IMG/VR virus record: IMGVR_UViG_2636415959_000005
Direction: 5' to 3' (one strand)
Origin: a virus
Taxonomy: Duplodnaviria; Heunggongvirae; Uroviricota; Caudoviricetes
DNA length: 40,716 bases
The position numbers and the translations under genes were made by a program. The notes beneath the pieces are model-generated. The model worked only from the letters and a program-made list of their open reading frames with translations, was not told the origin of the DNA and did not search any database. Positions 33,135 to 35,123 of the stretch are shown here, piece by piece. The first letter of the stretch is position 1. Each line of letters opens with the position of its first letter.

Positions 33135-33842
33135 ATGGATTTGAATAAATTCGATGAGCCATTCAGCCCTGAAGATATCGAATGGCGAATACAGCAAAGC
33201 GGTAAAACACGCGATGGAAAGGTGTGGGCTATGGTGCTGGCTTATGTCACGAACAGGGCAATCATGAAACGCCTGGACGATGTTTGCGGCAAAGCAGGAT
33301 GGCGCAATGAATACCGCGATATTCCCAACAACGGCGGCGTTGAATGCGGCATATCAATAAAGATTGATTCCGAATGGGTAACCAAATGGGATGCTGCTGA
33401 AAACACGCAGGTAGAAGCCGTCAAAGGTGGTCGTTCCGGTGCAATGAAGCGCGCTGCCGTTCAGTGGGGAATCGGTCGGTATCTGTATAACCTTGAGGAA
33501 GGTTTCGCACAAACATCTATCGATAAAAAGCAGGGGTGGCACAGGGCAAAACTGAAGGATGGAACAGGATTTTACTGGCTCCCTCCATCGCTTCCGGGAT
33601 GGGCAATCCCAGCATCAGATAACAAACCATCACCAGAAAATACCAACCAGAAATCTCCATCGGTTGACTGCGAACAAATCCTGAAAGACTTCAGCGATTA
33701 TGCGTCAACAGAAACTGACAAGAAAAAACTCATCGAGCGTTATCAGCGTGACTGGCAATTAATGGCTGGCAACGAGGAGGCGCAGGCTAAATGCGTTCAG
33801 GTAATGAACATCAGAGTTAACGAACTAAAACAGGCGGCATAA
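33135..33842 (+). CDS. Single-strand annealing protein, Rad52/Sak-like (functional analogue of lambda Bet)
   Basis: 235 aa; motif …GGRSGAMKRAAVQWGIGRYLYNL… typical of phage Rad52-family annealing proteins; gaggtg RBS. Confidence 0.65.
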   Translation: MDLNKFDEPFSPEDIEWRIQQSGKTRDGKVWAMVLAYVTNRAIMKRLDDVCGKAGWRNEYRDIPNNGGVECGISIKIDSEWVTKWDAAENTQVEAVKGGRSGAMKRAAVQWGIGRYLYNLEEGFAQTSIDKKQGWHRAKLKDGTGFYWLPPSLPGWAIPASDNKPSPENTNQKSPSVDCEQILKDFSDYASTETDKKKLIERYQRDWQLMAGNEEAQAKCVQVMNIRVNELKQAA

Positions 33843-34310
33843 ATGTATCACTTGGACGGAATTATTAAAAGATTCGAGTCCAGCTACAAAGTTAATGAAA
33901 CAACAGGTTGCTGGGAGTCTACCTATTCAAAAAACAAAGGAGGATACACAAAATTTGTAGCCTTTGGCGTAACAATGCTTTCTCATCGTGTTGCTTTTGA
34001 GCTTTATCACTCCCCCATTCCATCTGGGAAGATGGTTTGCCACAAATGCGATAACCCATGCTGCGTTAATCCTGAACATCTCTTTTTAGGTAGCGCGCAA
34101 GAAAACATGGACGACAAGATAGCAAAAGGAAGGCATCGTGGAGCCAAGAAAGGTCATGCTCATCATGGTGCAAAATTAACAGAGTGGCAGGTTATAGAAA
34201 TTAGGAAAAGACTCTCTGAAAAAGAGAGTCAGTACAAGATAGCAAAAGACATGGGTGTATCTCAATCAATTATAAGCAACATAAAAACTGGCAAGAGGTG
34301 GAGCAAATGA
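33843..34310 (+). CDS. HNH endonuclease with C-terminal DNA-binding region
   Basis: 155 aa; HNH signature [44 protein letters not shown]; overlapping start and stop with neighbours. Confidence 0.85.
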
Positions 34311-34813
34311 GTTCTCGCGGGATAAATAAGGTGATTATCCTTGGTCGGGTAGGACAAGACCCGGAAGTTCGATACTCACCATCAGGAACAGCGTTCGCTA
34401 ACCTGACAATAGCCACGTCAGAACAATGGCGAGATAAAAATACTGGCGAGCAAAAGGAATTGACTGAATGGCATCGTGTTGCTGTATCCGGGAAACTGGC
34501 TGAGGTCGTGGGGCAGTATGTGAAAAAAGGTGATCAGATTTATTTCGAGGGAATGCTGAGAACCAGAAAGTGGAAAGACCAGTCAGGGCAAGACCGTTAC
34601 ACAACCGAGGTTCATGTCGGAATTAATGGCGTGATGCAAATGCTTGGCGGCATTGGCGACAGCAAACAACAAGCAGCCAGCAGGCAATCACAGAAGCCAC
34701 AGCAGCAATCATCACCAGCACAACACAACGAACCTCCGATGGATTTTGACGACAATATACCCTTTGCACCAGTAACTCTCCCCTTCCCTCGTCACGCTAT
34801 TCACGCAATTTAA
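34307..34813 (+). CDS. ssb: Single-stranded DNA-binding protein (SSB) with C-terminal extension
   Basis: [23 protein letters not shown]…TEWHRV…[17 protein letters not shown] parallels E. coli SSB; acidic tip [11 protein letters not shown] is followed by 15 more residues. Confidence 0.9.
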
Positions 34814-34826
34814 TCAGGAGAAAATC

Positions 34827-35123
34827 ATGCCAGCGCCTCTGTATGGTGCGGATGACCCGCGCCGCTGTTCCGGCAATTCCGTATCGGAGGTGCTGGAAAG
34901 TATCAAGAATAATCTCGGCGCGTTTCTTGCTCTGCCACCAGAAACAAAAGCAGAACGGAAGTACCGACGCGATATACAACTCGCAGAAAAACAGGAAAAA
35001 GACCGAATAAACGAAACATCAATCCGACCATTCCGCAAAGCCACATATACCCACTTCCCTGAATATATCGACCCGCGCCTGCGTAATTACCGCTCACGCT
35101 ATGGCGCTATCAGTAATGACTGA
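34827..35123 (+). CDS. Hypothetical protein (98 aa)
   Basis: ORF in the same operon with an RBS; no homolog recognised. Confidence 0.45.

Follow-up and report, generated by a model that had tools for sequence, protein, structure and literature searches.

A conserved extension behind the acidic tip of a phage single-stranded DNA-binding protein, and a putative homing-endonuclease insertion site at the tip boundary

Here, we describe the gene for an SSB, or single-stranded DNA-binding protein, in a 40,716-nucleotide stretch of DNA from a virus of the Caudoviricetes (IMG/VR record IMGVR_UViG_2636415959_000005); this whole stretch is referred to as the window. The encoded SSB has a host-like acidic tip that is internal and is followed by 15 residues, here called the extension. 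The gene and its parts are arranged as follows.

34307..34813, + strand: SSB gene, an allele without an endonuclease gene at its 3′ end, encoding 168 residues plus stop (open reading frame and translation)
34322..34648, + strand: OB-fold core binding single-stranded DNA, residues about 6-114 (Pfam match to residues 6-104, AlphaFold2, invariant W41, W55 and W89)
34649..34732, + strand: short disordered linker rich in Gln, Pro and Ser, residues about 115-142 (low predicted local distance difference test score, pLDDT; variable length and sequence among homologues)
34733..34765, + strand: host-like acidic tip, internal, residues 143-153 (match to the E. coli SSB C-terminus; strong purifying selection)
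34766..34810, + strand: post-tip extension of 15 residues, 154-168 (beyond the end of TIGR00621; conserved; predicted to be disordered)
34763..34768, + strand: inferred insertion point of endonuclease genes, between the Phe153 and Ala154 codons (Ala codon retained in some loci with an HNH gene)
34768..34813, + strand: 46-nucleotide block, 100% identical to the 3′ ends of the HNH genes of Sf6 (gene 26), IME10, N7, CurroJimenez and Huey

The reading frame starts with an ATG at 34307, which is preceded by the ribosome-binding site GAGGTGGAG and overlaps the TGA of the preceding reading frame as ATGA, and it ends with a TAA at 34811-34813, giving 168 residues. The protein matches Pfam SSB PF00436 over residues 6-104 (E=1.7e-36), PHROG 44 (2.2e-65) and TIGR00621 "ssb" (1.7e-48, above the model cut-off), with residues 4-153 corresponding to positions 2-165 of the 165 positions of the TIGR00621 model. 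Because this model ends at F153, the SSB has 15 extra residues beyond the family model, and NCBIfam returned only generic SSB-family matches that all finish at or before F153. Thus, the reading frame, its translation and the family model bear out the original prediction, made from the sequence alone, that an internal tip is followed by 15 residues before the stop. In an AlphaFold2 model based on an alignment of 33 sequences, in which W41, W55 and W89 are invariant, residues about 8-110 have a pLDDT >90 and form a beta-barrel and one helix, while residues 117-168, i.e. linker, tip and extension, have a pLDDT <50 and do not dock onto the OB core. Docking of the extension onto the OB fold was rejected because AlphaFold2 leaves these residues disordered.

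The homotetrameric E. coli chromosomal SSB (PF00436/TIGR00621; PDB 1eqq, 4mz9) has the same OB core, a disordered linker and a near-identical tip, NEPPMDFDD[DN]IPF. At the tip, 12 of 13 residues are identical to the E. coli C-terminus (PDB 1eqq), the sole change being Asp to Asn, and the window SSB is about 65-70% identical to host-like SSBs in the alignment. Unlike the E. coli protein, it has a non-terminal tip, a much shorter linker (about 28 residues) and Ser61 at the equivalent of Phe60. Codon 61 (34487-34489) encodes this Ser; most members of the phage clade have I/V/M-S here, while host-like members keep Leu-Phe, and we take the position to be that of E. coli Phe60, one of the aromatic residues (W40, W54, F60 and W88) that stack on single-stranded DNA. 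The window tip reads DFDDNIPF, with Asn150 (codon 150, 34754-34756) where nearly all relatives carry Asp; relative to HK75 this is a single G-to-A change, it is absent from the other close relatives examined, and one distant protein cluster has the tip DWDDNIPF. Judged by predicted fold and sequence, the window protein is an SSB, and the only feature that fails is the acidic tip as the extreme C-terminus with a free alpha-carboxylate, as 15 residues follow F153. A PDB sequence search matched the tip only and gave no solved complex or structure for the extension; PADLOC reported nothing for the SSB.

The extension is encoded in frame as GCA CCA GTA ... ATT, and no stop can be reached from the GCA after Phe153 by a single-base change. 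The ssb genes of HK75, mEp235 and mEpX2, which are 99% identical to the window ssb at the nucleotide level, and those of the Salmonella phages epsilon34 and g341c, which are 88.8% identical, encode an identical or near-identical extension. Among the best 120 protein clusters from a search of 5.8 billion proteins, 111 have the extension and seven a canonical end; the sources are Salmonella, Klebsiella, Citrobacter, Enterobacter, Kluyvera, Pluralibacter and E. coli. The extension is hardly ever truncated or frameshifted in the 111 clusters, its spacing to the tip is fixed, and a few database entries are frameshifted in the SSB 3′ region (e.g. P0006, P0121). Extension DNA is present in 404 of 5,426 complete E. 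coli genomes: in 268 of them it directly adjoins a tip within a gene annotated as ssb, and in about 136 it lacks an adjoining tip. Similarly, about 93 of 120 IMG/VR loci with extension DNA have an SSB tip directly before it. The conservation in related phage SSBs that was to be checked by alignment is therefore seen both in the clusters (111/120) and in the E. coli genomes (268/5,426).

At the level of sequence, the 47 distinct 15-residue variants follow the pattern A-P-[VI]-[TG]-L-[PQ]-[FY]-P-R-H-x-I-[HY]-A-[IL]. L5 is invariant, P2 is present in 46 of the 47 variants and an aromatic residue at position 7 in 44, the last residue is hydrophobic, and 45 variants have A/V/S/M/L/C at the penultimate position and I/L at the last. 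Among 24,040 segments of open reading frames, those whose ends bear the motif have either an SSB tip before it (122) or an HNH endonuclease (27), and the remainder contain none. An open run of 15 codons after a lost stop is not unusual by chance; it is the conservation that exceeds chance. By these surveys, the extension is the prevalent and long-standing state in the SSB clade of the window.

Two other forms of post-tip extension were observed. In cluster P0001 (165 residues, 588 members, Salmonella), the extension has 12 residues and ends ...PFPRHAI, as if one HAI-HAI repeat unit (CACGCTATT CACGCAATT) were lost. Other phage SSBs carry a second family of extensions of nine residues, AP[LM]HHL[AN]G[AG] (APLHHLAGA, APHHHLNGA, APMHYLAGS), with a pN/pS of 0.31; in the IMG/VR loci concerned (L129-L205, e.g. 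L130, L146 and L162), the upstream genes mostly encode YqaJ exonucleases or Sak4-type ATPases.

Selection was estimated from Nei-Gojobori counts of the proportions of synonymous (pS) and non-synonymous (pN) differences. In 58 unique ssb genes, pS and pN are 0.54 and 0.10 for the OB core, 0.55 and 0.015 for the tip, and 0.17 and 0.024 for the extension. Across samples, the tip has a pS of 0.55-0.65 and a pN of 0.015-0.039, making it, with a pN/pS of about 0.03-0.06, the most constrained segment of the gene; the value is 0.06 in a sample picked on the extension only. Being under stronger constraint than any other part of the SSB, the internal tip is not a dead relic and is still used for something. 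A second sample was picked only on the tip plus Ala-Pro and is therefore unbiased for extension residues 3-15. Here, the extension has a pS of 0.58 and a pN of 0.24, i.e. an uncorrected pN/pS of 0.41, with L5 invariant and positions 2, 7, 12 and 15 restricted. One extension haplotype is common to 36 of 59 unique ssb genes, and some other haplotypes differ from it by five to seven synonymous and no non-synonymous changes. From these counts, the extension peptide is under purifying selection. A DNA- or RNA-level element as the cause of the conservation was rejected, because no promoter or terminator was found in the extension region and its RNA fold is no better than that of shuffled sequences (z = +1.3).

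Several close relatives have an SSB with a canonical-looking end, and a comparison of junctions indicates that these are derived alleles in which an endonuclease gene has been inserted after the Phe codon. Sf6 gp27 (SSB) and gp26 (HNH), as well as their counterparts in Huey, N7, IME10 and CurroJimenez, belong to the same module of annealing protein, SSB and Abc2, with the same SSB family and the same 46-nucleotide block; unlike in the window, the SSB ends canonically at a recoded tip and the extension forms the C-terminus of the inserted HNH protein. In Sf6, Huey and N7, the SSB ends ...NFDD(S)[DE]IPF*, and the HNH reading frame, which starts a few bases further on, takes the extension for its C-terminus, so that the translations of Sf6 gp26 and the Huey HNH protein run from the tail ...HKHNKPIYPDE[EA] into the extension sequence. 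The annotation of gene 26 in the Sf6 record mentions, without interpretation, 14 contiguous residues identical to E. coli SSB. Megablast matches of the window ssb to these endonuclease genes span query positions 462-507 only, and the 46-nucleotide block is, on this alignment, the right-hand junction of the putative insertion site. The window or HK75 and Huey differ by 438 bp at the Phe codon between flanks that are 99% identical. Specifically, the Huey SSB is 99% identical to the window SSB up to ...NEPP; then 9 of 30 nucleotides differ in the tip, and a stop, a ribosome-binding site, the HNH gene and the extension follow.

The same arrangement recurs. Of 120 IMG/VR loci containing the extension, 24 carry the HNH gene, and all 28 HNH-carrying alleles have an altered tip (MNFDDSDIPF, MNFDDEIPF or similar) on an SSB ending ...IPF* directly upstream, while endonuclease-free alleles have the tip MDFDDDIPF, with DDIPFA in 88 of about 93. 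Five loci with an HNH gene of the MKTCSRCNQQKE type keep the Ala codon, reading ...PDE-A-PVTL (L021, L028, L042 and L110 of the 28, plus L215/L217), and the insertion is thereby located precisely behind the Phe codon. The HNH family is PHROG 2340, whose relatives include genes annotated as intron endonuclease I-KsaII. Both the profile of PHROG 2340 and the homologues that tblastn recovered from 492 phage records run out at about residues 131-139 of 155, i.e. before the extension, which is therefore not native to the HNH protein. An origin of the extension as an HNH piece left on the SSB by deletion was accordingly rejected as the main origin, and the diverged extension variants on SSBs of distant phages without an HNH gene also count against it. 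Decayed copies exist as well. In phiKp_30 (L008, 2351-2554), an HNH gene between the SSB gene and the next gene retains its start and its last ~20 codons, including the extension, around an internal deletion and mutually out of frame, and the HNH copies in L010 and L094 are truncated. Of two canonical close relatives, cluster P0013 has a PHROG 2340-type HNH gene after its SSB gene and cluster P0008 has neither HNH gene nor extension. Presence and absence, an altered target and decayed copies together characterize homing endonucleases and their empty sites, and the window carries such an empty site.

Other endonuclease genes lie at the corresponding position in other phages. PHROG 2340 HNH genes directly follow an SSB or SSB-like tip in IME_EC2, the Klebsiella phages K54_rec3 and ZCKP1 and Pseudomonas phage PsgM04F. 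In ES18 (L221, 1785-2815), the SSB gene ends with Huey-type recoded tip DNA (ATGAACTTCGACGATGAGATCCCATTTTAAT) and is followed by a different HNH gene (gp47) without the extension, which suggests replacement of one endonuclease by another at a single site. A survey of 116 Vequintavirus (rV5-like) records identified three states at the Phe codon (loci L211, 2381-3067, of rV5_ev168; L212 of JeffSchatz; L213 of HeinrichReichert; L214 of EmilHeitz). In the endonuclease-free state, the SSB-like protein ends YAFDDDIPF* (JeffSchatz); in another, a recoded YEFDDSIPF* is accompanied by an EndoVII-like "putative homing endonuclease" (HeinrichReichert); and in the remaining one, YDFCDDIPF-APVGLQYGKSRIHAL* contains the start codon of the endonuclease within the extension in another frame (rV5, EmilHeitz). 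In rV5-like phages, the EndoVII-like gene thus occupies the codon position that is also used by the HNH gene. The proteins concerned are two-OB SSB-like proteins of the rV5/PVP-SE1 type (PHROG 4477), some of which share ...DFDDDIPF followed by APIGLQYGRNFIHCI or APVGLQYGKSRIHAL with the window SSB, while their N-terminal body is unrelated to it and the Vequintavirus extension is linked to the EndoVII-like insertion. Tip and extension also form the end of PVP-SE1 gp39 (409 residues, two OB folds) and of the SSB of Proteus phage vB_BPM-V3, which is of a different OB lineage and has a RecT neighbour, and the module is also found in Vibrio phages and in Pseudoalteromonas. Judging from these junctions, the boundary between tip and extension is a recurrent insertion site for several families of putative homing endonucleases, and the tip plus extension is a module that recurs on unrelated SSB bodies.

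How could an extended SSB function? In DnaG, R452 anchors the C-terminal carboxylate of SSB, and ExoI, RecO, chi and PriA have the same pocket architecture (PMC5872125); in RecO, the anchoring arginine is R132 (PMC3152348). Because the extension removes the free alpha-carboxylate anchored by these host pockets, binding to host partners should weaken. Masking of the tip is chemically reasonable and is predicted here from this pocket chemistry. We suggest that the extended SSB would bind ExoI, RecO, chi, PriA and DnaG poorly, and that the internal tip, perhaps together with the extension as a composite motif, would serve interactions that do not need a free end; the neighbouring annealing protein and the OB fold of the SSB itself are candidate contacts. 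The outcome would be a "private" SSB, which covers the recombination intermediates of the phage but does not recruit host nucleases and helicases to them. The explanation that we prefer overall, to which we assign a probability of about 0.55, combines a capping extension under constraint, altered partner selectivity and a recurrent endonuclease site. Its parts differ in strength. We are highly confident of the descriptive ones, i.e. that the extension is real and conserved and that the endonuclease site exists, while altered selectivity of a "private" SSB, rather than an inactivated tip, is put forward tentatively and is on balance the doubtful part.

Several observations weigh against this explanation. 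Sf6, Huey and N7 are viable with an SSB that lacks the extension, and the extension on the SSB is therefore not essential. It is also polymorphic among close relatives (Sf6, Huey and N7; JeffSchatz versus rV5; P0008), and with phages in which it is dispensable, any benefit must be conditional. Simple inactivation of the tip by masking would predict that the tip decays, and it has not decayed. For the group of P22-like and lambdoid phages, synonymous diversity in the extension falls three-fold below that of the rest of the gene, and this uniform DNA points to recent recombinational spread, which weakens the argument from selection in this group. In the Vequintavirus records, the extension is found only in one variant of the endonuclease-carrying allele, and by this comparison it can arrive as cargo of a mobile cassette. 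Finally, the annealing proteins encoded upstream belong to at least four unrelated families (plus RecT), which argues against a family-specific phage partner.

Three alternatives have to be weighed against a selectivity-changing cap. The original prediction had considered recent loss of a stop codon, and a sequencing error or a stop at the canonical position; a pseudogene would be a variant of the same idea, in that the true protein would end ...IPF. Apart from the expectation that SSBs end at IPF and the few frameshifted database entries (P0006, P0121), nothing speaks for it, and it is extremely improbable: Phe is followed by GCA, with no stop within one substitution; independently sequenced phages and hundreds of genomes and metagenomes have the same frame and the same extension, which is widespread and old; and the peptide is under purifying selection. 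Frameshifting to a canonical end was rejected by inspection, as CCC-TTT-GCA is not slippery in frame and a +1 shift gives ...IPFHQ*. It is also unlikely, but far less so, that the extension is without function and a tolerated by-product of endonuclease traffic at the ssb 3′ end, i.e. in-frame flanking or cassette DNA that is spread by co-conversion and module exchange and kept since it is harmless. Insertion of the PHROG 2340 HNH gene, the EndoVII-like gene and the further HNH gene of ES18 exactly after the Phe codon in different phage groups fits such traffic, as do an rV5-like extension that comes and goes with the endonuclease cassette, the single haplotype in 36 of 59 otherwise diverged ssb genes and the viable phages without the extension on their SSB. 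However, a by-product would not be expected to keep a position-specific pattern in 47 variants (L5, P2 in 46/47, aromatic position 7 in 44/47, hydrophobic end), to give haplotypes that differ only by five to seven synonymous changes or to remain almost free of truncation and frameshift in 111 clusters; moreover, phages of several gamma-proteobacterial orders, both lytic and temperate, carry diverged versions, and some loci have the extension without an endonuclease nearby (HK75, PVP-SE1, the Proteus phage).

Alternatively, the extension could be a positive signal, either a short linear motif that docks a factor (clamp-like, replisome or phage protein) or a hydrophobic C-terminal degron through which proteases would degrade the SSB, with masking of the tip being incidental. 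The extension is disordered, short, conserved by position and always at the extreme C-terminus, as docking motifs and degrons typically are, its spacing to the tip is fixed, and the HNH protein tolerates or benefits from the same sequence. The beta-clamp-binding motif is QL[SD]LF or QLxLxL, with Gln at position 1. In our assessment, there is a loose likeness between the core x-[VI]-[TG]-L-[PQ]-[FY] and clamp-binding hexapeptides such as QLSLPL, and the non-polar ends (..H-A-I, ..Y-A-L, ..C-M) resemble those of tail-specific degradation signals, which ClpX, ClpA, FtsH or Lon recognise, and would be compatible with an ssrA- or MuA-like one. However, the Gln of the clamp motif is never present, Pro occupies position 2 in 46 of 47 variants, and [VI], L and [FY] fit loosely; the neighbouring phage genes vary widely, and no solved complex matched beyond the tip. 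We consider a positive signal an unlikely explanation.

Returning to the capping extension, a more far-reaching version of this reading is that, in a widespread class of phage SSBs, the mobile module combines a mimic of the host tip with a conserved capping motif, and that these SSBs would no longer recruit the host SSB interactome but act as a selective shield or decoy. We regard this as rather unlikely. If it were true, such an SSB would, for example, deny ExoI, RecJ and RecQ access to phage recombination intermediates or sequester them, homing endonucleases would exchange the module between unrelated SSB genes with the tip-coding DNA as landing pad, and insertion of an endonuclease gene would toggle the SSB between a capped and a free-tip state.

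Other phages offer points of comparison. Partner binding by T7 gp2.5 depends on the acidic tail and the C-terminal Phe, and T4 provides a precedent for SSB genes as homing sites, as its homing endonuclease SegG works at gene 32, which encodes the T4 SSB. T7 gp2.5 and T4 gp32 belong to different protein families, and we know of no conserved post-tip extension described for them. Deletion of F232 from T7 gp2.5 prevents the interaction with the polymerase (bioRxiv 10.64898/2026.02.22.705581). In HK620, the last six residues of the SSB (HkaK), NDYPPF, are required to stimulate the cognate annealing protein Sak4 (PMC5928155). This SSB is encoded at the same genomic position and is non-homologous to bacterial SSB, with an aromatic tip at the very C-terminus; the HkaK/Sak4 pair is a precedent for phage annealing proteins that read SSB C-termini. 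Bas52_0087, the reported trigger of DRT10, appears to be a member of the PHROG 4477-type family; a 2026 preprint on this protein, which has two predicted OB folds, names FDDDIPF as a host-SSB-like tip and does not discuss an extension (10.64898/2026.04.29.721553). A 2025 survey of recombination modules in lambdoid phages notes that there has been no experimental work on their SSB-1 proteins and lists the HNH and DnaQ genes next to them as probable nucleases of the module (PMC12315714). Full-text literature searches for the extension sequence and for a C-terminal extension of phage SSBs returned no description of it, and the sequences have been public for two decades, annotated simply as SSB.

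SSB biology regards a free C-terminal ...DDDIPF as the universal handle by which more than a dozen enzymes of genome maintenance dock. A conserved class of phage SSBs in which this handle is under the strongest selection in the gene and yet buried beneath another conserved motif is, therefore, a natural experiment that could show for which partners the end has to be free. This is of relevance for recombineering, because phage annealing proteins depend on SSB tails, and for phage-host conflict, in which defences such as DRT10 and DARNA are set off by SSB-like proteins of phages. It also matters for annotation: such proteins are routinely recorded as plain "ssb" and the adjoining HNH genes are read as recombination nucleases rather than selfish insertions. 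An ssb 3′ end that is a hotspot for several families of homing endonucleases would help to explain mosaic junctions in lambdoid and P22-like recombination modules.

The genes and signals around the SSB gene are as follows.

33135..33842, + strand: Rad52/22-family single-strand annealing protein (Pfam PF04098, 7.1e-26)
33843..34310, + strand: HNH_3 endonuclease gene, inserted exactly where the annealing-protein gene stops and the SSB gene begins (Pfam HNH_3, 1.1e-13)
34307..34324, + strand: recoded ssb 5′ end, first 18 nucleotides (MSSRGI.. versus MASRGV.. in HK75 and in alleles without the upstream HNH_3 gene)
34816..34829, + strand: ribosome-binding site (AGGAG) and abc2 start, right after the SSB stop (sequence)
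34827..35123, + strand: Abc2 anti-RecBCD gene (Pfam PF11043, 1.5e-42)

Only the flanks of the HNH_3 region match HK75 and similar phages, and megablast identity of the window ssb to that of HK75 begins only at base 17 of the gene. The HNH_3 insertion is present in six IMG/VR loci at 99.4% amino acid identity and, at the megablast level, in none of 50,697 phage records. Given the recoded 5′ end, this ssb gene seems to have a second homing-endonuclease site, at which the HNH_3 gene is inserted.

The upstream genes of extension-bearing SSBs are diverse. Among 75 unique upstream genes, 45 encode Rad52-like proteins, 11 Erf, five Sak4-type proteins and four HNH_3, so that 61 of the 75 are Rad52-like, Erf or Sak4-type. 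Identification of a partner from the gene neighbourhood was rejected, because the upstream gene encodes Rad52-like, Erf, Sak4, RecT or YqaJ and none of these co-varies with the extension. In P22, the gene for Abc1 has the corresponding position upstream of abc2; as Abc1 and the extension have no similarity, derivation of the extension from Abc1 was also rejected.

Downstream, 63 nucleotides comprising the extension, the ribosome-binding site and the abc2 start are 100% identical in Sf6, N7, IME10 and Huey. For Abc2, the window protein shares 95.9% identity with its counterpart in Salmonella phage VSe13 and only about 74% with those of HK75-type phages, even though the first bases and the ribosome-binding site are identical, and this alignment indicates a mosaic junction just inside abc2. 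At the module's opposite end, the last ~40 residues of the window annealing protein (KKLIERYQRDWQLMAGNEEAQAKCVQVMNIRVNELKQAA; 33720-33842) are nearly identical to the C-terminus of P22 Erf (L208, 1350-1470), which is of a different family, and this common tail suggests a shuffled domain for interaction with a partner.

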